A stretch of 18,965 bases of DNA, taken from Terriglobia bacterium (GTDB lineage Bacteria; Acidobacteriota; Terriglobia; UBA7540). The stretch is from contig JBHGBD010000048.1 of NCBI GenBank assembly GCA_041946825.1, forward strand, positions 1 through 18,965, read 5' to 3'. The notes below the pieces were generated by a model. The model had not been told where the DNA came from and did not search any database. It saw only the letters and a program-made list of their open reading frames with translations. Shown here in pieces: positions 713-18,965 of the stretch. The translations under genes were made by a program, and so were the position numbers. Numbering within the stretch: position 1 is the first letter of the stretch; each line of letters starts with the position of its first letter.

Positions 713-1036
713 CTATCTGGTCGCGATCTCGGAATTGATTCTGACCACTTTGTTCAATTGCTCGATTTGCGACTTCAGTTCCCGGATTTGCGCCTGCTGC
801 TCTTTCACCGCCTCAACGAGCAGCGCCGTGAGTCGCGCATAGTCCACGGATTTGGCGTCCACGCCGTTCGCTTCATAGGTTACAACTTCGGGAACGACTT
901 CACCCACCTCCTCGGCAATCAATCCGATGTTGTGTTGGCCGTCGGCTTTTGCATCATATGTCACGCCGCGCAGCCGCTCCACGGTTGAGAGCGCCGCGTG
1001 GATCGTTTGTATGTTTGTCTTCCAGCGCCGGGAGCT
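713..1036 (-). other. Peptidase S74 / intramolecular chaperone auto-cleaving domain. The predicted cleavage Ser lies in SSRRWK at about 1034-1036
   Basis: Motif alignment by eye to the S-D-x-R-x-K ... IGxIAQEV ... VDYxxLxxLLVEAIKEL consensus of endosialidase and T5 L-shaped tail-fibre C-terminal domains. Confidence 0.7.
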
Positions 1037-4000
1037 ATAGGTCGTCCACGCATCGGCGATAGGATCGGTGGCCGAAGCCTGCTTCACGGTGAGAATGTTG
1101 CTGGCGTTTGAAATTCCAATCGCCACGTTACCGGGTACGACGAAATCTCCGGAGCTGAGATTCACACTATCTCGCATTACCCTGTAAAGCACGATGGTGT
1201 CAGGAAAGCCGCTGTAGGCGGTCGGTGTAATGCATGCACCACCGGGGTTTCTCCGGCTGAGCACCTGATTCAGAATGAATCCGGTGGTCGTCATGTCGAG
1301 CATCCCGCCCCCGTCCCACGTTCCCAAGTGGCTGTCGGAATAGTTGCTGCTGTATTCTGTCCCAGTACAGCCGGGCACGACAAAATAGGACTCTCCCACG
1401 CCCTGAGGTGCCTGGCAATTGGGGCCTATGCAAACCCCCTTTCTGACCACTAGAGCGTTATCAAAGAGGGCATTTCCACCCGCTACCTGGAACTTCTCGA
1501 CAGGAGAGGCTGTGCCAACTCCGACCTTGTCGCCCGCAAGAACAAGTTGATCCGTCCCTGCTGTCAGGCCGTTGGAGGGCAGGTTCAGTGTTCCCGTCAT
1601 CGTGTCGCCGACCTTGGAGACTTTAGCGAGGTCGAGCGCCGTGTCTGCCGACGTCCGTGCCCCGATTTCAGCGGTATCGCCTGCCTGGCGCGCGCTTGCC
1701 TCGGTCGTGACGTCAGCCGGCATGGCGGGGGTGAAATTCAGCTCTGCGGCTGACACGCACCCGGTGCAGTTCACGTTGTTGGCAGTCCCAACGGGGACGT
1801 TGACGAGACCCGACCCATCGCCGAAGAAGTGTCCGGCGTGGAGGTCATCCGAGAAGAACGCCCCGCCGATGGCGCTCACGTTGAACGTGTAAGGTTGAGA
1901 CGAGGAAAACTCTCCCCGCGAGCCGTCGGACCAGACGAAGGTTTTGTTATGGATTGCCCGGGCGCGGAAGCCGGCGGCAAGGCTCCCTTCGCCCTCCGCG
2001 ATGTTGAACTCACCGCCCGGTACCGTCGATACTCGCCCGCTGGCCGCGTTGTGCTGACCTCCGCCGACGGCGGCATAGGCCCCGTCACCAAATACGTCAT
2101 TGTTGCTTCCCGCTTCGTTATCCGCCCCGCCGGCGACGGTCCCGTAATCGTCCGTCACGCGGTTGGCACCGCTGGTTGCCGAACCGCCCCCGCCGATGGT
2201 TGCACCTCCGTAGGCCCAGCGGACGTAATTCCCGCTCATGCCGCCAATGATATTCGGGCTGTCATAGCCGGACTGGAACACCAGGGCATTGTTGATCGAC
2301 CCGCTCACCCTCAGGTTGCCGTTGACGGTCTGGGTCCCCGTAAAGGCGTTGTCGCCTTGAGTGGTTGCGCGTAGGTCGATTGCAGCTTGAAGCGCCGTGT
2401 CCGCATTGGTGCGGAGCACGGCCTCAGCGTTGAGGTTGCTTTGCAGTGTGATATCGGCACCACTGCGGGCGGTGCTTTCGGCACTATCAGCTGCTTGGAG
2501 CGTTCCGACCTCAGTAGCCAACTGCCCTTGCGTCACCGCGTCTGGAATGTTGCTGATGTTGAGATTGGTCAGCCCCGCCCCATTGCCCGAGAATGAGCCC
2601 GTGAAGGAAGGAGCTGAAATACCACCTGCAGCCCAGACATTCCCACTGCCCTCGACACGGAATTTCTCTCCCTCGCCAGTCGCGCCGCTCAGGATCTTCC
2701 CTCCTTGCTGATTCACGAAGAGTCCGGCGACTCCCGCTGGACTCTCGACGTGCCCCTTTACGCCGATGGTTGTTCCTGTCGTGTCATGTGCCTCGCCGTA
2801 TACGCCTGTACCTGTGGGCCCGTCCGTCATGCCCCTCACGCCAAACGTTGGGCTGGTGCCATCGACTCCCGATCCGTTGCCGGAGGACACAGCATAGATT
2901 GCTGGCGAGTTGCTTACGTTGGTGGCGCGAATCGCGTTTACCCCGTCGGTGTTGAGTTGTTGAGCGATTAGTGCCGCCCCAGAGCCGTTTTGATCCACTT
3001 TGAGTACCTCACTGTCCGTGTTCCCGTACATGCCCTGTTTTCCGTTGAAGTCGTTCCCCACATCCAGCCGCGCGTAGGTCGCGGCGGGGACGTTCCCCAA
3101 AGCAGCCGCGTTTAACGCTTCATTCGCGCTAAGGGCGGACGTGGCTGTCTGGGCGGTGTTGGCAGTCTCTGCGGTTTGTGCTGTCGTCGCGTGCTCAGCA
3201 TTGGCTGCCGTGGCCGCTGTCGTGATACCCGTCAGCCCCGAGCCGTCGCCGGAAAACGATCCGGCCGTGATACTGCCCGGTACTGAGATAGTGCCCTCAG
3301 TCCAGATGTACATCCGGTCTTTGCCGTCTGTCCGGAAAATGAGCGGAGCGACCGTTCCGGGGTCAGTTTGCACCACGCCGTGATCGTTGGCGAAGAACAG
3401 CGACATGGATTTGTTCTCGGAGCTGATGAAATTCAATTGCCTGAAGGTGCCTGAGGGATTCAAGATCTGGATGTCGCTCTGGCCCCTCAGGGTTCCCGTG
3501 AGGTCAAGATTTCCCGAGATGCTCTGGTCGCCTGTGAAGGTGTTGGTCGCAGTGAGTTGCGCAAAGCTGGTAGCAGGTTGCCCGCCCAGCATTTGGGCGT
3601 TTGTGGCGTCGAGCGCCGTAAGCGCACTGGTCGCCGGGCCGTTTTTGGTGCCACTTCCGGCGTAGTTGATTCCCAGTTGCTGATCTACGACACAGTCCGT
3701 GCAGTTGAGCCCTGTCGCTGTCCCGCCTCCGGTTGAAGCGGTTGTCTGCGTAGTGCCGTCGGGAAAGATCAGGCCCGTTCCATCGCCGCTGATTTTCAAA
3801 TTCCCCGCCACCTCCAGCTTTTCCGTAGGAGCGGTTGTCCCGATGCCGACATTGCCGGTCCCCTTGATAAGCATGATCGGGTCTTTGGTGGAGATGTTGA
3901 GGTTGTCTTCCCCTTGAACGGAATCTAGATTCGAGAAGAATCCAATATCGTTCTGCTGGTTGTCGGTGCCCAAAACGACCATATCTTTCTGATCCAGTTG

Positions 4001-7000
4001 CGGACTCGAGTAGCCAAAATAGGCGATCCCGCCTTGGGCCGTGTGCAGTGCCAACCCGGCGCGGCCGTGGGGCATGTCCATGTTGACGTTGAGCCCCGTA
4101 ACGAATTGCGGATAGTCAGTGCCGTCAGGGTTTACACGCAGGCTCCCGCCATCCACATGTAGCCTCTCACCAGGTGCCCCGGTTCCGACGCCTACGTTGC
4201 CGTTGCTCTTCAGGACGGTGAACAACGACTCCCCGTTCCGGTCGATGCTCATATACTGCGGCGCCACACGGTAGAGGAGGCTGAGGCCGACGCCCGACTC
4301 ATCCTCTTCCATGAACTCGATGCCGTTGGGTCCGCCGCCACCGAGGCGTATCTGGGGGTTTGAGCCTCTGATGTCGAGCGCACGCTGCGGGGTGAGTGTG
4401 CCAATCCCCGCCTGTCCAGTCGTCGTCAGGTTACCCGAAATGCTCTGGTCGCCCGAAAAGTTATTGGTGCCGCCCAGGACGGCGGGAGCGAACGCCAGCG
4501 CGCCGCTGGGGATATTCGTCAGCCCCGAGCCGTCGCCGGAAAAGCCCGACGCTGCCACCGTGCCGCCGACCATGAGGTCGTTCGAGAAGAACCCCCCGCC
4601 CTGGGCGCGCACGACAAACTGGTTGTTGCCGGTGGAGGACACGTCGTCATCCGTCGATCTGTCGCCCCAAACGAAAGTGCCGACCTCAATCGCTTTGGCG
4701 TGGTATCCCGCAGCGAAACTGTGTTCGCCAAGAGCCTGGTTGTAAGAACCACCAGGCACAGTGGCGGCATAGGCGCCGGCCAGGTTGTGCTCGCCCCCGC
4801 CCACTGTGCTGTCGTTGCTGTTGGCTTCGTTGTGGTTGCCCCCCGCCACGGTCGACTTGGCGCCGCTGGCCGTGTTATCCGCCCCCCCACCCACGGTCGC
4901 GAAAGCAGCATTGTCGGCGCTTTCGGCATTGTCCCCCGCCTGGTTGTTGACGCCACCCGCGACTGTGCTGAAGTCGTCCGTCACACGGTTGAACCCGAGG
5001 CCCGCGTTTCCACCCCCTCCAATCGCTGCCCCTTGCACGTCTGGCACGACATAGTTGCCACTGGTGCCAGCGATGAAGTTCGCGCCGTACGGGTCGCTGC
5101 CCTGGATTACCAGCCCTCCATTGATTGAGCCAGTCACCGAGAGGTTTCCGCTAATGCTTTGGTCTGCCGTGAAGTTATTAGTGCCGCCCAAGTCGGCGGG
5201 AGCGAACGCCAGCGCGCCGCTGGGGATATTCGTCAGCCCCGAGCCGTCGCCGCTGAACGATGCCGCCGACACGTTGCCCGGCGTCGTGAGGTTGGCCGAT
5301 CCGCTTTCAAAATTCACGGCGGTGAGGGGAGTACCCGAGGCGTCGACTCCAGTAATGAACCTGAAACCGCCCGTGGCGCGGGCGACGAAAGAGTTCCAGC
5401 CGGCGTCGGTGACGTCGGCGTCGGTCTGGTCGCCCCACACGAAGCTTCCACCACTTGTGGCTTTGGCACGGTTACCTGCCGCGAAGCTGGAGAACCCTGC
5501 CGTGTTCTTGAAGCCTCCCGGCACGGTCGCAAAAACGCCATCGGCGATGTTCTGGTCTCCTCCCCCCACGCTGTCGGCCCAGTTCCCGGCGGTGTTGCCG
5601 CTCCCGCCCGCCACCGTCGAAGCCCCGCCCTTCGCGGTGTTGCCCGCTCCACCCGCGACCGTATCGGCCCATGCGCTGGCTTTGTTTCCATCACCTCCGC
5701 CGATAGTTGCGCTCGTCCAGCCAGGTCCCGCCGCAATGTTATTCACGCCCCCGCCGATAGTCGAGCCTCCTGCGTTGGCTTTATTGAATACGCCGCCGGC
5801 CACAGTGGCACAGCAGGCGTCATCGAGCGTTCCCGCGTCGTCCCCCGCCTGATTGCCAGCTCCGCCGCCGATGGTGCTTGTGACGTCCGTGACGCGGTTA
5901 GGGTACAGGACCTCGCCGCCGCCGCTAATCGTGACCGTGTGCAGCCCTGGCGCAATGTAGTTGGCACTAGAGCCGGCAAGTATATTGGGGCCATCTGCGG
6001 TGGTGTCGATCCGCAGTCCGTTGGAGCTGATCGCACCCGTCAGGCTAAGGTTTCCAGTGACGGTCTGGTTGCCGACAAAAAGGTTTGTCCCTAGTGTGGC
6101 CACGCCGGTGACATCGCCTACAGGGTGGGTATGAACAAGCTGTGAATATCGCGCGTCCGTGTAGCCGGTATTGAGATCTAGCCTGCCCGTAGTTCGAATC
6201 GGCCCTCCCGTCAATCCAGGACCGGTCATGATGCTGGTAACGGTTCCGCCCGTTCCCGTGGGGAAGCCATTCAGATCCAGGTAGGAATTGGCGCGCACGT
6301 TGCCCCCACCATCGACGCTGAACATCTCAGTTCCCGGTGCGACGCCAGAACGGCCACTCAGGATCTTGCCGTTCGTGTCGGTGGTCAGGAACGAGCCCGC
6401 GACACCTGTGGCGCTATTCACTTGGCCCCCCACGCCGACGGGGATAGCGGTTGTGGAAATGGAAGAGGCATATCCAAAGATGCCGGTACCAGTCGCGCTA
6501 GTACTGGCCCCGTGGACGCCAAAAGTCTGCCCGCTTACGGCCGTGGCCTGTCCACGGACTGCGGCTTTGCCGCTGGTCGGGCTCACAACGATTGCAGACA
6601 ACGCGTCCCCTGTGCCGTTCTGCTGGACGGATACCACCTGGTTCGTGGTGGTGTCGGCGAAGCTCGTTGCGGGTGTAGTTTTGGGCGCGCCCCCACCGGC
6701 GGCAGCAGGTGCGGCGGCAAGGGCTTTGCCAGTCGAGGCCGCCGTCGTTTGCGCCGGCATGAGCACCGCGACGGCGGTGCGCACTTTCTGCTCAAGTTGC
6801 TCCGCGAGGACGAAATCCGAGGCACGTTTGCCCCCGAGTTTTGCCGCGTCTTCGGCTTTGAGAGCGTAAGGGACACTCACCATCAGGACACGCGGATCCT
6901 CATCGCGATTCTCAACCTGGACACCCAGCCATCGCGCTTTTCCGGCAGGAAAGAGTTCGACGGGAACGCCCGTGTTCGCAGTCGCTCCCAGCAGAACCGT

Positions 7001-7291
7001 GTAGCGGCCCTGCTCATCGAGTTGGATGACCTGGGCTTCATTCCATAGCGCCGTGCCGCCTTGCGGCTCTTCATAAACTGAAAACGTGAGCCGCACAGCA
7101 ACGTTGCCGATCGGTTCGCCGTTGCGATCTCTTACCACGCCGTTGAACTGGATCAACCGCGGCACTGGCGCGACGGAGGTTTGGCTGGTCTCGGCCGTCG
7201 GCTCCGACTGCGCGATCGCCGTAAATGGAAGACCGACCGCCAACAGCAGAAGAATGAATGTCATCCGGAAGACACGTGTAGGGCGACGCAT
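713..7291 (-). CDS. Giant secreted fibrous protein (~2192 aa), phage tail-fibre/tailspike-like. It has Hep_Hag/YadA-head-like 14-residue repeats and a C-terminal intramolecular chaperone (Peptidase S74) domain
   Basis: The ORF 713..7342 is uninterrupted. I place the start at the ATG at 7291 because GGAGGTG sits 5 nt upstream (plus-strand complement cacctcc, 7297-7303). A classic signal peptide follows: MRRPTRVFRMTFILLLLAVGLPFTAIA|QSEP. The C-terminus reads ...YSSRRWKTNIQ...HNIGLIAEEVGEVVPEVV...VDYARLTALLVEAVKEQQAQIRELKSQIEQLNK, which matches the endosialidase CIMCD / S74 consensus (S-x-R-x-K dyad) plus a terminal coiled coil. There are many repeats of the form xTVxGGxxNxAxG and five copies of F(S/F)G(D/N)G(S/A)GL(T/V)N. 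Confidence 0.85.
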   Translation of the reverse strand: MRRPTRVFRMTFILLLLAVGLPFTAIAQSEPTAETSQTSVAPVPRLIQFNGVVRDRNGEPIGNVAVRLTFSVYEEPQGGTALWNEAQVIQLDEQGRYTVLLGATANTGVPVELFPAGKARWLGVQVENRDEDPRVLMVSVPYALKAEDAAKLGGKRASDFVLAEQLEQKVRTAVAVLMPAQTTAASTGKALAAAPAAAGGGAPKTTPATSFADTTTNQVVSVQQNGTGDALSAIVVSPTSGKAAVRGQATAVSGQTFGVHGASTSATGTGIFGYASSISTTAIPVGVGGQVNSATGVAGSFLTTDTNGKILSGRSGVAPGTEMFSVDGGGNVRANSYLDLNGFPTGTGGTVTSIMTGPGLTGGPIRTTGRLDLNTGYTDARYSQLVHTHPVGDVTGVATLGTNLFVGNQTVTGNLSLTGAISSNGLRIDTTADGPNILAGSSANYIAPGLHTVTISGGGEVLYPNRVTDVTSTIGGGAGNQAGDDAGTLDDACCATVAGGVFNKANAGGSTIGGGVNNIAAGPGWTSATIGGGDGNKASAWADTVAGGAGNTAKGGASTVAGGSGNTAGNWADSVGGGDQNIADGVFATVPGGFKNTAGFSSFAAGNRAKATSGGSFVWGDQTDADVTDAGWNSFVARATGGFRFITGVDASGTPLTAVNFESGSANLTTPGNVSAASFSGDGSGLTNIPSGALAFAPADLGGTNNFTADQSISGNLSVTGSINGGLVIQGSDPYGANFIAGTSGNYVVPDVQGAAIGGGGNAGLGFNRVTDDFSTVAGGVNNQAGDNAESADNAAFATVGGGADNTASGAKSTVAGGNHNEANSNDSTVGGGEHNLAGAYAATVPGGSYNQALGEHSFAAGYHAKAIEVGTFVWGDRSTDDDVSSTGNNQFVVRAQGGGFFSNDLMVGGTVAASGFSGDGSGLTNIPSGALAFAPAVLGGTNNFSGDQSISGNLTTTGQAGIGTLTPQRALDIRGSNPQIRLGGGGPNGIEFMEEDESGVGLSLLYRVAPQYMSIDRNGESLFTVLKSNGNVGVGTGAPGERLHVDGGSLRVNPDGTDYPQFVTGLNVNMDMPHGRAGLALHTAQGGIAYFGYSSPQLDQKDMVVLGTDNQQNDIGFFSNLDSVQGEDNLNISTKDPIMLIKGTGNVGIGTTAPTEKLEVAGNLKISGDGTGLIFPDGTTQTTASTGGGTATGLNCTDCVVDQQLGINYAGSGTKNGPATSALTALDATNAQMLGGQPATSFAQLTATNTFTGDQSISGNLDLTGTLRGQSDIQILNPSGTFRQLNFISSENKSMSLFFANDHGVVQTDPGTVAPLIFRTDGKDRMYIWTEGTISVPGSITAGSFSGDGSGLTGITTAATAANAEHATTAQTAETANTAQTATSALSANEALNAAALGNVPAATYARLDVGNDFNGKQGMYGNTDSEVLKVDQNGSGAALIAQQLNTDGVNAIRATNVSNSPAIYAVSSGNGSGVDGTSPTFGVRGMTDGPTGTGVYGEAHDTTGTTIGVKGHVESPAGVAGLFVNQQGGKILSGATGEGEKFRVEGSGNVWAAGGISAPSFTGSFSGNGAGLTNLNISNIPDAVTQGQLATEVGTLQAADSAESTARSGADITLQSNLNAEAVLRTNADTALQAAIDLRATTQGDNAFTGTQTVNGNLRVSGSINNALVFQSGYDSPNIIGGMSGNYVRWAYGGATIGGGGSATSGANRVTDDYGTVAGGADNEAGSNNDVFGDGAYAAVGGGQHNAASGRVSTVPGGEFNIAEGEGSLAAGFRARAIHNKTFVWSDGSRGEFSSSQPYTFNVSAIGGAFFSDDLHAGHFFGDGSGLVNVPVGTANNVNCTGCVSAAELNFTPAMPADVTTEASARQAGDTAEIGARTSADTALDLAKVSKVGDTMTGTLNLPSNGLTAGTDQLVLAGDKVGVGTASPVEKFQVAGGNALFDNALVVRKGVCIGPNCQAPQGVGESYFVVPGCTGTEYSSNYSDSHLGTWDGGGMLDMTTTGFILNQVLSRRNPGGACITPTAYSGFPDTIVLYRVMRDSVNLSSGDFVVPGNVAIGISNASNILTVKQASATDPIADAWTTYSSRRWKTNIQTIHAALSTVERLRGVTYDAKADGQHNIGLIAEEVGEVVPEVVTYEANGVDAKSVDYARLTALLVEAVKEQQAQIRELKSQIEQLNKVVRINSEIATR
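4479..4537. repeat. 59-bp exact intragenic direct repeat, copy 2
   Basis: Identical to 5194-5252 (within +-1 nt). A third partial copy, cgtcagccccgagccgtcgccgg, is at about 3228-3255. Confidence 0.8.
5194..5252. repeat. 59-bp exact intragenic direct repeat, copy 1 (encodes GDGSGLTNIPSGALAFAPA)
   Basis: cggcgggagcgaacgccagcgcgccgctggggatattcgtcagccccgagccgtcgccg is identical at 4479-4537. Each copy is embedded in a roughly 715-bp diverged tandem module. Confidence 0.8.
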
Positions 7292-7296
7292 GGAAT

Positions 7297-7303
7297 CACC
7301 TCC
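7297..7303 (-). promoter_or_regulatory. Shine-Dalgarno GGAGGTG for the giant gene
   Basis: The reverse complement of 7292-7310 is cagtcttGGAGGTGattcc, followed by ATG. Confidence 0.5.
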
Positions 7304-7746
7304 AAGACTGTCAGGCAGCGCGAGTGATAACGCTGGGCACACTTCTGTCTCGCTTGGAGCGAGTTTGATTCACACCGTGCAGTTCACCTGCCATACCGCA
7401 AACTGGTTGCAGGAGAATGTCACAGTGCTGGAATTGTCGCATCGCAGTTAGTATTGTGAGGTTGAGGAAAGACCGATAGCTCTTGGAGCAGGAAGCCTGG
7501 ATTTGGGCGAGTTGCCCTAGTGGAACTCATGGAGCAGTGTGCCTCAAACTGCAACTTAAGATGAAACGTTTTGCGACTGGGTGTTTACGGATGTCATATC
7601 ACTCTACTTACTAAGGATGGAACCAAGGGGCCCGATACGGATCGCCATCACTCAACGAGCGAGAGTCTCTTGCGATTTGTATATTCCCCCGAGCATTATC
7701 TCAACAGATATCATGCTGAATCTTTAGATTATCCATTCGACTCTTA

Positions 7747-7761
7747 GTGACATTGTGTCAC
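7747..7761. promoter_or_regulatory. Perfect palindrome GTGACA-TTG-TGTCAC, a candidate operator
   Basis: Read directly. It is a 6-3-6 inverted repeat in the non-coding spacer. Confidence 0.3.
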
Positions 7762-8285
7762 ATCGACTTTGAGTCCGCGGGTTCGAAGGGAGACGTTAGG
7801 TGATTGTGGATTTGGCCGAGCCAGATCGCGCCCTAGAAAGATGCGACGCAAGTGAAGTACTCCGCTGCTCGCTTTCGCGCTGCGCGAAGTTCCGCCACGG
7901 ACTGAGATGGGATTTCGGTTCGATGTTGCGGAGATGACCTTCACAGTCGGATTTGTGAGCTTGTGCCTTGGGAGGGCGGCGCCCCGAAAGGATGCTCGAT
8001 CGGTTTGGAATTAGAATTCGGTGAAAATCAGGCGTCTGCATTCCATCGACGTCTCTCGCCCGATATATTGTGATCGGCGCAGCCGAATACGCACACCGAA
8101 GTAACGAACTCGTCGCATTACTCGCCGGTGGTGCACACAGCTGGGAGATTTCCTGTTGCGTTTCGTGTCCGTTCGGACCGGAAGCAAGTAAACCACCCGG
8201 CATTTACCGCCAACCCTTCCAGTAGTAGCACCAGAACCTTCACCAGCACAACCATGGTCCCAGGACGAGTTGTGGCGATCGTCAC

Positions 8286-8293
8286 GGGGGGGG
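8286..8293. repeat. G8 homopolymer tract in the non-coding spacer
   Basis: gtcacggggggggcaac. This is a potential slipped-strand site. Confidence 0.4.
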
Positions 8294-8498
8294 CAACAGG
8301 TGCTCGATTTCTGTTCGGGTTGTGTGGTAGGGCCGGGAGGGATCACGCTCAGAAAGTCACGCCGGGACCGAAACCCTAACCCCGTTTCCATTGCCATCCT
8401 GACATCTGACCTACTCCGCCGCCACCAATAGAGAAGGGTCACATGGAATTCTCGGGGATGCCCCGGGAGGGCAAATCTTCTCATCCCAAGTGTCCTCA

Positions 8499-9371
8499 TT
8501 ATGAGAGCCGATGGGCGACTACCGTCATTACGGCGTCCCGCAGTTCAGTGCCCGGCATCAACCGCTGGCTCCACCGCGCGTACCACGTGAAGTAGTAGTT
8601 CATGCAGTCGGGGCTGTACTCCGGAATCAGCCCGTCAGGTCGGGTGGAACGAATGATATCCTTTGGATCTTTGCCAACGGGGATCTGCCAAAGCTCCGGC
8701 GCCTCGTGCCGCATGTCCCACCACCGCGCTCCGTACGGCCCCCAGCGGAGTTCATTAATGAGCTGCTCTCTATAACCATCAGATAGGTCCAAGGATTCGA
8801 TCCATTCCATCGTCGCCGCCACCAGTACGTCGATATATCTCGTGCGCTCTTGCTGGTCTGACTCCAAGCGTTCTTGGTGCTCGCGAACCCTTCTGGCGCC
8901 GCCTATTTTGAGCGCCTGCCGGCAACTGAGCCTTCCCTGCTGAATCAGCAGCTTCTCATCCTTGGTCAGCTCATTCAGCCGCAGGTATTGGCGGACGAGA
9001 CCCTCGGAACAGCCAAGCGCCTTCGCCAACGCTCGTCGCGAATGGCCGGCCTCGGTGAGCAGCGCCAGGCGCAGGCTACGTTCGGATGCTGAAAGGTGGG
9101 CCCATTCGACCCGAAGTTGCTCGATTTCGGCTTCATCCCCGATATCCAGAGGGCGCAGATCATCGCTGACCGTTCGGCCGATTGCCGCACCTGGTGCAGC
9201 GTTCCCCGCAGGCGCGCCAGAGGGCTCGTTCGCCATTTCGCGATGCGCTTGGCAATTAACACCAGACCCAGCGCTACTTCCCGGCGGAGGAGTGGTGGAC
9301 TCCCCCCGCTCGGGCATATCGCACGAACTGGCGCCAGCGTAGGCTGCGCTCGGCGAAGGCCGCCTGCCCAT
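8499..9371 (-). CDS. ParB/KorB-like helix-turn-helix DNA-binding protein with a C-terminal domain of unknown function
   Basis: The ORF 8499..9533 opens with TTG. The first ATGs are at 9371 and 9236 and neither has an SD, so the start is uncertain. The HTH segment HSRRALAKALGCSEGLVRQYLRLNELTKDEKLLIQQGRLS resembles the ParB/Spo0J pattern (LAxxLGxSxxxVxxxLRLLxLxxEVxxLIxxGxLS). The first 50-100 residues are low-complexity (S/P/G-rich). The stop overlaps the next downstream frame as TAATG. Confidence 0.5.
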   Translation of the reverse strand: MGRRPSPSAAYAGASSCDMPERGESTTPPPGSSAGSGVNCQAHREMANEPSGAPAGNAAPGAAIGRTVSDDLRPLDIGDEAEIEQLRVEWAHLSASERSLRLALLTEAGHSRRALAKALGCSEGLVRQYLRLNELTKDEKLLIQQGRLSCRQALKIGGARRVREHQERLESDQQERTRYIDVLVAATMEWIESLDLSDGYREQLINELRWGPYGARWWDMRHEAPELWQIPVGKDPKDIIRSTRPDGLIPEYSPDCMNYYFTWYARWSQRLMPGTELRDAVMTVVAHRLS

Positions 9372-9627
9372 GGACGCGGACGAAGGCTCGCTTGGCACGC
9401 TTACGGATTCGTTCGAGCTTGCGAAGGAGCCGCCCCGCTGCTGCCCCGTGATTGAGTAGCCAGCTTCGAATATGCCGGTGGCGAACGAGCTTGGTCGTGA
9501 CGCGCACCGCCAAGATACAGGCTGCCAGATCAAAGGCGCTCATACTTAGGCGGTGAAGAGGACCTTCCTTGGAGGAAAGACGAGCATGAAGGTCAACCAC
9601 GAAACCGGTGCTCGCGGAAGGCTGCCC

Positions 9628-9798: not shown

Positions 9799-10077
9799 TC
9801 AGGGTGCGGGCGTGGTAGCTGTAGGCGAGACGGAGCCTTCCTGGGGTTCCTTGAGCTCCCGGTCGTAGGCCTTGCGCGATCGCGGATTACTCAGGACTCT
9901 GTAAGCCTCGGTGATTTCTCGGAAGCGGTTTCCTTCAACCCCAGGGGTCACGTCGGGATGATATTTCTTGACCAACTCCCGAAAACGTTGGCGAATTGCT
10001 GTTCCGGTAGCATTGGCTGGGACACCGAGGAGTTCGTAATGCGTGTACTTCGGCGTTGCCGCCCTGCGCTCCACCAA
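9799..10077 (-). CDS. Small stand-alone J-domain (DnaJ-like, HPD motif) protein, about 92 aa
   Basis: KYTHYELLGVPANATGTAIRQRFRELVKKYHPDVTPGVEGNRFREITEAYRVLSNPRSRKAYDRE is a canonical J domain. The ORF stays open up to 10323. However a strong SD, GGAGGAA (complement at 10084-10090), sits 6 nt before the TTG at 10077 and 9 nt before the GTG at 10074. The stretch upstream of these uses many rare A/T-ending codons. I therefore prefer the short form. GC3 is lower than in the neighbouring genes. Confidence 0.55.
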   Translation of the reverse strand: MVERRAATPKYTHYELLGVPANATGTAIRQRFRELVKKYHPDVTPGVEGNRFREITEAYRVLSNPRSRKAYDRELKEPQEGSVSPTATTPAP

Positions 10078-10083
10078 GAACTG

Positions 10084-10090
10084 TTCCTCC
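10084..10090 (-). promoter_or_regulatory. Shine-Dalgarno GGAGGAA for the J-domain gene
   Basis: The plus strand reads ttcctcc, and TTG/GTG follows on the minus strand. Confidence 0.45.
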
Positions 10091-10512
10091 CCACCGTGAC
10101 CTCTATCCGCGAATGCCCGAAGCCAGGCAGCCGACACGGCATGGCACAAACTTGCCCAAGCCGTATGGCTATGTCGAAAGTTAGTGGGTATATGCAAAAA
10201 AGTCAAGGAAAGAGACGACATGGACTGCGAAGTCCCAACTGCAAATCCTGAGTCGACAGCGCTCTTAAGCAGCCTTGAGTTTAACACTCGATACACATCT
10301 TTCCCTACCCCCAGATCTTTCATCGAGACCTTTCTTGGCCCTCGGAATTTATCGCTCGCGCCTGCAATTCAAGCCTCAGTGCAATTAGCGGATCGACCTC
10401 GGTCGCCCGGCGGTGAACTTGGTCCCCGACCCAAATGGTGTGCTCGGCGTCAGATCCGGCCTCCCTCGTGCTACCCCTTGCGCTTCCCTGCCCGATGCGG
10501 TTTGATAGGGGC

Positions 10513-18893: not shown

Positions 18894-18965
<72 letters not shown>

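Follow-up and report, generated by a model that had tools for sequence, protein, structure and literature searches.

A 2192-residue S74 fibre protein of a Terriglobia bacterium: a probable cell-surface fibre of the mosaic adhesive trimer type

Introduction

Mosaic adhesive trimer (MAT) fibres of Bdellovibrio were described in 2024 as tools for prey recognition by a bacterial predator (Caulton et al. 2024, Nat Microbiol; PMC10769870). By the published definition, they combine a signal peptide, an N-terminal domain (N-domain) of ~130 amino acids (aa), a trimeric fibre and a Peptidase_S74 (S74) domain, and they have been shown on the surface of Bdellovibrio cells (PMC10769870). Here we describe a gene for a protein that probably has this architecture in a metagenome-assembled genome (MAG) of Terriglobia (Acidobacteriota), located at positions 713-7291 (minus strand) of contig JBHGBD010000048.1, which is contained completely in the stretch of 18,965 nucleotides (nt) analysed here (hereafter the window). 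A first reading of this DNA, made without database searches (the sequence-only reading), had implied that the combination of domains was novel; this was not supported, as the combination is the published definition of the Bdellovibrio MAT fibres, to which both the N-domain and the fibre body are also similar. The architecture is thus already known, and what is new is the host phylum, the size and multi-head composition of the protein, and its orphan tip. We put the probability that the gene is a chromosomal gene for a cell-made surface fibre of the MAT type at roughly three in four.

The fibre gene and its product

The longest open reading frame (ORF) of the window spans positions 713-7342 on the minus strand, to which all coordinates within the gene refer. 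From the ATG at 7291, which has a Shine-Dalgarno-like GGAGG (7299-7303) 7 nt upstream, it encodes 2192 aa, followed by a stop codon at 713-715. The product is identical to P0001, named 'MAG: tail fiber domain-containing protein [Terriglobia bacterium]' by NCBI, and is on record from one NCBI contig only; exact-protein look-ups yielded no entry for the query or for P0011. The stand-alone gene of this length claimed by the sequence-only reading is therefore real, and the four protein features listed there, i.e. a signal peptide, an N-terminal globular domain, repeats and an S74 domain, were all found where they had been placed.

Signal peptide and conserved N-terminal domain

The Sec-type signal peptide (residues 1-27; 7211-7291) consists of an n-region, MRRPTRVFR, with four positive charges, a hydrophobic core (residues 10-26) that is the sole strongly hydrophobic segment in the whole protein, and a cleavage site between AIA and QS. 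This assignment is based on rule-based inspection of charge and hydropathy, not on a trained predictor; a hydrophobic leader also precedes the N-domain in relatives.

The signal peptide is followed by a conserved, probably MAT-type domain at residues ~40-165 (6797-7174), a putative cell-surface anchor of about 125 aa. When the full query was used as a search sequence, 54 of the 67 other proteins that it retrieved contained this domain, with 42-75% identity in most relatives. AlphaFold (AF2, with the family alignment) models it as a beta-sandwich, and the predicted local distance difference test (pLDDT) value stays above 90 for the first 100 residues of the model. No Pfam family covers the domain, which marks a gap in the domain databases. 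In NCBIfam, the single match for the protein was NF053851 ('Bdello_MAT_N, mosaic adhesive trimer family chimeric fiber protein'), found in two stretches with the N-terminal 185 residues as query (E 7.1e-13, 48.7 bits; range of scores obtained, 40.6-48.7 bits; curated cutoff, 60). NF053851 also matches 24 of 26 Acidobacterial N-domains, and the cutoff of 60 was reached by none of these 26 and by none of nine environmental N-domains. The query is therefore not a member of the Bdellovibrio subfamily and was classed among the MAT-type fibres sensu lato.

Because the Acidobacterial N-domains align best only at NF053851 positions 111-161, bridging sequences were sought among environmental fibres retrieved via a Bd2133-like body module. 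Some of these fibres have an N-domain that is recognized by the Acidobacterial profile over positions 2-119 (E 1e-15 to 1e-6) and that aligns to NF053851 positions 2-78, the other half of the model. Taken together, the two sets of alignments support homology between the Acidobacterial N-domain and Bdello_MAT_N over the whole domain, as judged by sequence comparison. In some of the proteins P0074-P0079, the N-domain is repeated in tandem (2-5 copies) or lies well away from the N-terminus (P0074, of 780 aa, contains five stretches), so that it is not an N-terminal anchor in all cases.

The C-terminal S74 chaperone

The C-terminus is formed by a Peptidase_S74 intramolecular chaperone (residues 2086-2192; 716-1036), which is the sole Pfam domain above threshold in the protein (PF13884 at residues 2086-2137, E 1e-12, above the gathering score). 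This is the domain expected from the sequence-only reading, and its prediction that ~107 C-terminal residues are released agrees with the length of the segment, which is exactly 107 aa. The motif is SSRRWK, with the codons of Ser2086 and Lys2091 at 1034-1036 and 1019-1021, respectively. Both residues are invariant and correctly spaced in an alignment of 16 S74 domains of the family, and the second motif residue is Ser, not Asp, in seven of the 16, including the query. A profile of the family S74 domains reaches S16 gp37 (6f45), 8jov, MyRF (7dc3), T5 pb1 (8hqz), and phi29 gp12 (3gud); the query Ser is aligned to the SD.R.K serine in four of these solved chaperones, and 7dc3 has Ala at this position. 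The Ser2086/Lys2091 dyad is intact, and self-cleavage is likely.

In one relative (P0021, residues ~1263-1387), a complete S74-like domain (…TFSDARLK…) is followed by a second, partial copy in which the catalytic Ser region is missing; this arrangement resembles a degenerate duplication or a recombination scar at the fibre terminus.

Modular fibre body

The fibre body is rich in Gly (15.4%), Ala (12%), and Thr (10%) and contains twelve xTVxGGxxNxA units and five GDGSGL-type motifs. Self-similarity analysis resolved it into three copies of a module of ~230-300 aa (module B) and two copies of a Gly-rich module of ~125 aa (module A). The first copy of module A (residues 214-334; 6290-6652) is predicted to be beta-helix-like and is 42-48% identical to the second (residues 1424-1554; 2630-3022), and modules of this type are also found in the homologues P0002 and P0007-P0009. 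Module B is a beta-roll resembling UspA1/YadA heads. Its three copies, at residues 396-697 (5201-6106), 700-931 (4499-5194), and 1644-1852 (1736-2362), are 39-55% identical to each other; the first ends with GDGSGLTN, and the second gave a weak Pfam match to UspA1_rep (E 0.0018). A profile of the three copies matched 3pr7, the head of UspA1, which is a trimeric autotransporter adhesin (E 1.9e-20), and this similarity supports an adhesive role.

The repeats had been called Hep_Hag-like in the sequence-only reading. Given the UspA1 head match, this description is right in substance, but the expected family itself was not obtained: Pfam Hep_Hag (PF05658) had no match at E<=0.1 in the protein, and Pfam searches with individual modules gave nothing above threshold.

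Direct similarity to Bdellovibrio fibres lies in a MAT-type capping-loop/beta-helix segment at residues ~1020-1199 (3695-4234), which contains VG[IV]G..P...L.V loops at residues 1033 and 1148 and an IFPDGTTQTTA stalk. Residues ~1120-1199 significantly match the crystal structures of Bd2133 (8OND, E 3.6e-16) and also Bd2439 (8OL4/8ONF, 1.1e-5) and Bd3182 (8OJN, 3.6e-4), with a weak match to Bd1334 (8OML, E 0.019); the PDB codes were assigned to the Bd proteins from PMC10769870. The element common to the query and these structures is the VG[IV]G..P...L.V capping loop together with an FPDG..QTTA stalk. With the printed PDB fragment of Bd2133 as query, a word-indexed search returned only four short fragments, and a metagenome scan did not turn up a near relative of Bd2133 (59% for the greater part of the fragment, with higher values over parts only).

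Cysteines recur at the junctions between modules, where a D[LV]xCxGCV...E[LV]xF motif places a CxxC pair at residues 1197-1200 and 1842-1845 (nt ~3692-3703 and ~1757-1768); the D[LV]xCxGCV motif is present one to three times in several homologues (P0002, P0006, P0013, P0014, and P0030). In a trimer, each junction would bring six Cys residues near the axis, which suggests a metal site or a disulfide knot. More speculatively, the conserved CxxC pairs are compatible with an oxidizing extracytoplasmic location. A vicinal Cys-Cys pair is also present at residues 493-494.

The distal tip

The query contains four capping loops (residues 1033, 1148, 1923, and 2056), the last two of which enclose ~130 residues at the distal end. 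Between the end of the last loop and Ser2086 lie 16-30 residues. The region delimited in this way (residues 1923-2070; 1082-1525) is a putative ligand-binding tip. Its core (~1935-2030) holds four Cys residues and has no homologue among 5.8 billion proteins. The sole partial match to the tip, P0069, aligns over the flanking loops and S74 only.

Family and distribution

Of the 67 other proteins mentioned above, 54 have the N-domain in common with the query and 16 the S74 domain, but none has its tip, and their C-termini belong to several classes that are unrelated to one another. Searched exhaustively with HMMER, the N-domain profile gave 36,530 cluster representatives at E<=1e-3, of which 3,121 reached E<=1e-30. 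In species-representative genomes, at least 568 loci encode the N-domain, and the best 80 of these all belong to Acidobacteriota (Terriglobia, Acidobacteriaceae, Bryobacterales, Acidiferrales, and Sulfotelmatobacter). Several genomes contribute N-domain genes on 4-6 contigs (at least six in SMAG_U6354 and at least four in SPRUCE 163), and tandem N-domain paralogues are present in at least 12 loci; these paralogue counts refer to related genomes, the genome of the window being represented by one contig. Family members are typically 500-1000 aa long, with a maximum of 1959 aa in this set, and the query stands at the upper extreme. Giant forms beyond the size of the query do exist, since a metagenomic open segment with an N-domain and S74 extends over at least 2894 aa (L148, 1407-10088, plus strand).

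At least three other recurrent, unannotated C-terminal modules stand in the place of S74 in family members: 'GGFRIDHPLDP.NKYL.HS.VESPDM.N.YDG...' in P0004, P0005, P0017, P0018, and P0026; 'GGADFAESV...YEPGDVL...KPGDLLVTS...' in P0007-P0009 and P0029; and 'KSAVVALPDNRVVELYA.ESPENWFEDFG...' in P0030 and P0033-P0035. Each of these may be an alternative tip or chaperone.

A surface fibre or a released fibre

A cell-made fibre of the MAT type would reach its final form as follows. The precursor would be exported by Sec, and the signal peptide would be removed after Ala27. In the cell envelope, the S74 chaperone would register three chains and nucleate the folding of an intertwined trimer, then use the Ser2086/Lys2091 dyad to cleave itself before Ser2086, so that 107 residues are released. 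About 2058 residues would remain in the mature fibre, which would be held on the cell through its N-domain, possibly by an envelope component, and would project a shaft composed of the two Gly-rich modules, the three UspA1-head-like beta-rolls, Ala-rich stalks, and capping-loop beta-helices. At the end of the shaft, the unique tip between the two capping loops would bind a ligand on another cell or a surface. What the analysis shows directly is the domain content, the likeness in sequence to Bdellovibrio MATs and to S74 chaperones, mosaicism throughout the family, and a genomic context that is not that of a phage; export, trimerization, self-cleavage, surface anchoring, and adhesive function are all inferred.

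Several observations weigh against a MAT-type surface fibre. The N-domain of the query, at 48.7 bits, stays below the cutoff curated by NCBI (60), and the S74 motif is SSRRWK, not the SDxxxK cited for MATs. Neither an outer-membrane route nor an anchoring partner is evident, and none of the neighbour families is conserved when 77 related loci are compared. Downstream of the gene, the sequence extends for only 712 bp. A single-sequence AlphaFold run on residues 1870-2192, comprising the tip and S74, gave an unusable monomer model (pLDDT 36.5). Terriglobia are not known as predators, so that the function of the Bdellovibrio fibres is not simply transferable.

The same lack of an identified anchoring mechanism would fit a fibre that is not kept on its producer. 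Such a fibre could be a bacteriocin-like factor for killing or aggregation, part of a matrix or biofilm, or an enzyme of the tailspike type that degrades glycans. S74-bearing tailspikes such as the endosialidases are often depolymerases, and genes for a SASA-family carbohydrate esterase and a lactonase lie nearby, although neither is conserved near relatives. We consider a released fibre unlikely: searches of Pfam, NCBIfam, PHROGs, and PADLOC detected no catalytic or toxin domain in the protein, and strong conservation of the N-domain beside variable tips is what a common attachment module would be expected to show. The Bdellovibrio MATs, moreover, are located on the cell surface (PMC10769870).

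Genomic context

A third explanation is that the gene encodes an orphan tail fibre of a phage, prophage, or tailocin, the structural cluster of which lies beyond the contig end or has been lost. The C-terminal ~105 residues do match tail-fibre families in PHROGs (E down to 3.8e-21) and phage S74 chaperones, NCBI uses the name 'tail fiber domain-containing protein', and the contig ends 712 bp past the gene. The PHROG tail-fibre matches are, however, confined to the S74 region, and the query has a Sec signal peptide. The N-domain, which occupies the position of a would-be virion attachment domain, had no match in 50,697 phage genomes. It was found on one of 2.9 million IMG/VR contigs (L079, IMGVR_UViG_3300047160_023828), a 9-kb contig on which a 770-aa fibre with N-domain and S74 is encoded beside Uma2, PD-(D/E)XK nuclease, and MerR genes and without phage structural genes; this contig was probably classed as viral because of its S74 'tail fibre' signal.

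The genomic surroundings point in the same direction. The other genes of the window are cellular, encoding ParB-HTH-like (helix-turn-helix), DnaJ-domain, lactonase, SASA esterase, MgtC/DUF4010, and flotillin proteins, and none of them, over the 11.6 kb upstream of the fibre gene, gave a structural PHROG match. On the downstream side, neither a convincing truncated ORF nor a DNA match to phages was found in the 712 bp. The earlier statement that no phage genes occur within 9 kb on each side thus holds for the upstream side, and could be checked on that side only, because no more than 712 bp separate the end of the gene from that of the contig. The comparison with relatives proposed at that time was carried out, and four of them (P0012, P0002, P0021, and P0028) are located among housekeeping genes such as ParAB/GidB, FtsK, the nuo operon, and URO-D on contigs of 23-577 kb. 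Cellular neighbours, relatives in housekeeping surroundings, and the absence of the N-domain from phage genomes together make a phage fibre very unlikely, in agreement with the proposal of the sequence-only reading that the protein is a cell-encoded, Sec-exported, S74-matured fibre outside a phage particle.

Least probable of all is a trimeric autotransporter adhesin of type Vc, which would supply its own C-terminal beta-barrel for export and anchoring: in its favour are the match of three modules to the UspA1 head, the signal peptide, and the label 'trimeric autotransporter adhesin' that JGI gives to two relatives, but the reading fails for want of a YadA-type anchor, as Pfam gives only Peptidase_S74, a soluble and self-removing chaperone, at the C-terminus, and no further hydrophobic or barrel-like terminal region was seen.

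Neighbouring genes and flanking regions

No synteny was found between the window and related loci. The nearest upstream gene (8499-9533, minus strand) encodes a 344-aa protein with a borderline ParB-type HTH (22.6 bits, exactly at the cutoff), and the next (9799-10323, minus strand) a 174-aa protein in which a C-terminal DnaJ J-domain is the only recognizable part; neither has relatives near other family members. Among the neighbours, only genes for Ser/Thr kinases recur; in 23 of 77-78 loci (L002-L078), they lie no more than 10 kb from the fibre gene. They were rejected as partners, as their position, strand, and architecture vary, and their recurrence probably reflects their abundance in Acidobacteriota, not a functional link. 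No PADLOC defence model was matched.

Both flanks of the fibre gene are unusually long (712 bp at 1-712 and 1207 bp at 7292-8498) and contain no convincing genes and no Pfam or Rfam matches. Their GC contents (0.563 and 0.537, respectively) are lower than those of the fibre gene (0.613) and of the rest of the contig (0.604). A Y1 transposase gene and many tiny ORFs likewise precede the relative P0012. These features may indicate that the fibre locus is rearrangement-prone or recently acquired. Rfam gave nothing near the fibre gene, and promoter and terminator scans were uninformative. At the other contig end, a tRNA fragment cut by the end was detected at 18897-18965 (minus strand; Rfam 29.3 bits, model positions 20-71), where ARAGORN found no complete tRNA.

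Significance

Terriglobia and related Acidobacteriota are dominant in soil and hard to culture. Judging from the sequence similarity of the query and its relatives to MATs, these bacteria appear to hold a massive expansion of the MAT architecture, and the family offers a handle on how they contact other cells or surfaces, as well as a large natural collection of putative trimeric binding tips and self-cleaving chaperones. A much bolder proposal, which we regard as tentative and rather doubtful, is that the N-domain defines a very large, essentially undescribed system by which non-predatory soil Acidobacteriota display arsenals of tip-swapping, phage-like receptor-binding fibres on their own surface. 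If this were true, the fibres would recognize other cells (prey, partners, or kin) or act as decoys for phages, MAT fibres would be a general bacterial cell-recognition device and not a speciality of predators, and the query would be an extreme multi-head example, with three heads of the trimeric autotransporter adhesin type and an orphan tip. The value of the query gene itself is that of a well-delimited example, not of a new principle.

Comparison with known systems

The MyRF ICA domain shares with the query an S74-type trimerizing and self-cleaving domain that belongs to a cell (7dc3, E 4.4e-14), but MyRF, a membrane-bound transcription factor of eukaryotes, neither forms a fibre nor acts as an adhesin. 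UspA1 of Moraxella catarrhalis (3pr7) resembles the query in the GGxxNxAxGxxSTVxGG beta-roll repeats of the three B modules, and both proteins are Sec-dependent and presumably trimeric and adhesive. The query differs in lacking a YadA-type C-terminal membrane anchor and in its reversed polarity, with the conserved, putatively cell-proximal domain at the N-terminus and the tip at the C-terminus. Phage fibres (K1F endosialidase, T5 pb1, S16 gp37, and phi29 gp12) have in common with it the S74 domain with its Ser-Lys dyad and a VGIGT..P...L capping motif ahead of the chaperone; unlike them, the query has a signal peptide and a cellular N-domain, not a virion-attachment domain, and is encoded outside a phage structural module.

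The query differs from the Bdellovibrio MAT fibres in several respects. Acidobacteriota (Terriglobia) are not among the phyla in the example table of PMC10769870, and within the literature that could be searched, no paper was found to link Acidobacteria with S74 fibres. The N-domain of the query remains under the cutoff of the Bdellovibrio subfamily, its S74 motif is SSRRWK versus SDxxxK, and it carries three UspA1-head-like modules and a tip core without homologue. Its length is about twice that usual for MATs (~1000 aa), although the table includes a Halobacteriovorax example of 1915 aa (PMC10769870). As in the S74 subgroup of Bdellovibrio MATs, e.g. Bd3182, a signal peptide, a conserved and predictedly beta-rich N-domain, a long fibre, and S74 follow each other in that order, and there is sequence similarity in both the N-domain (NF053851) and the body (Bd2133, Bd2439, Bd3182, and Bd1334). 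Stand-alone chromosomal genes and many paralogues per genome with swapped tips, the latter seen in the genomes of relatives, are further shared features. In Bd3182, two capping loops (656-669 and 752-765) precede the cleavage site at S782 (PMC10769870), and the query likewise places two capping loops around its tip just before the cleavage Ser.

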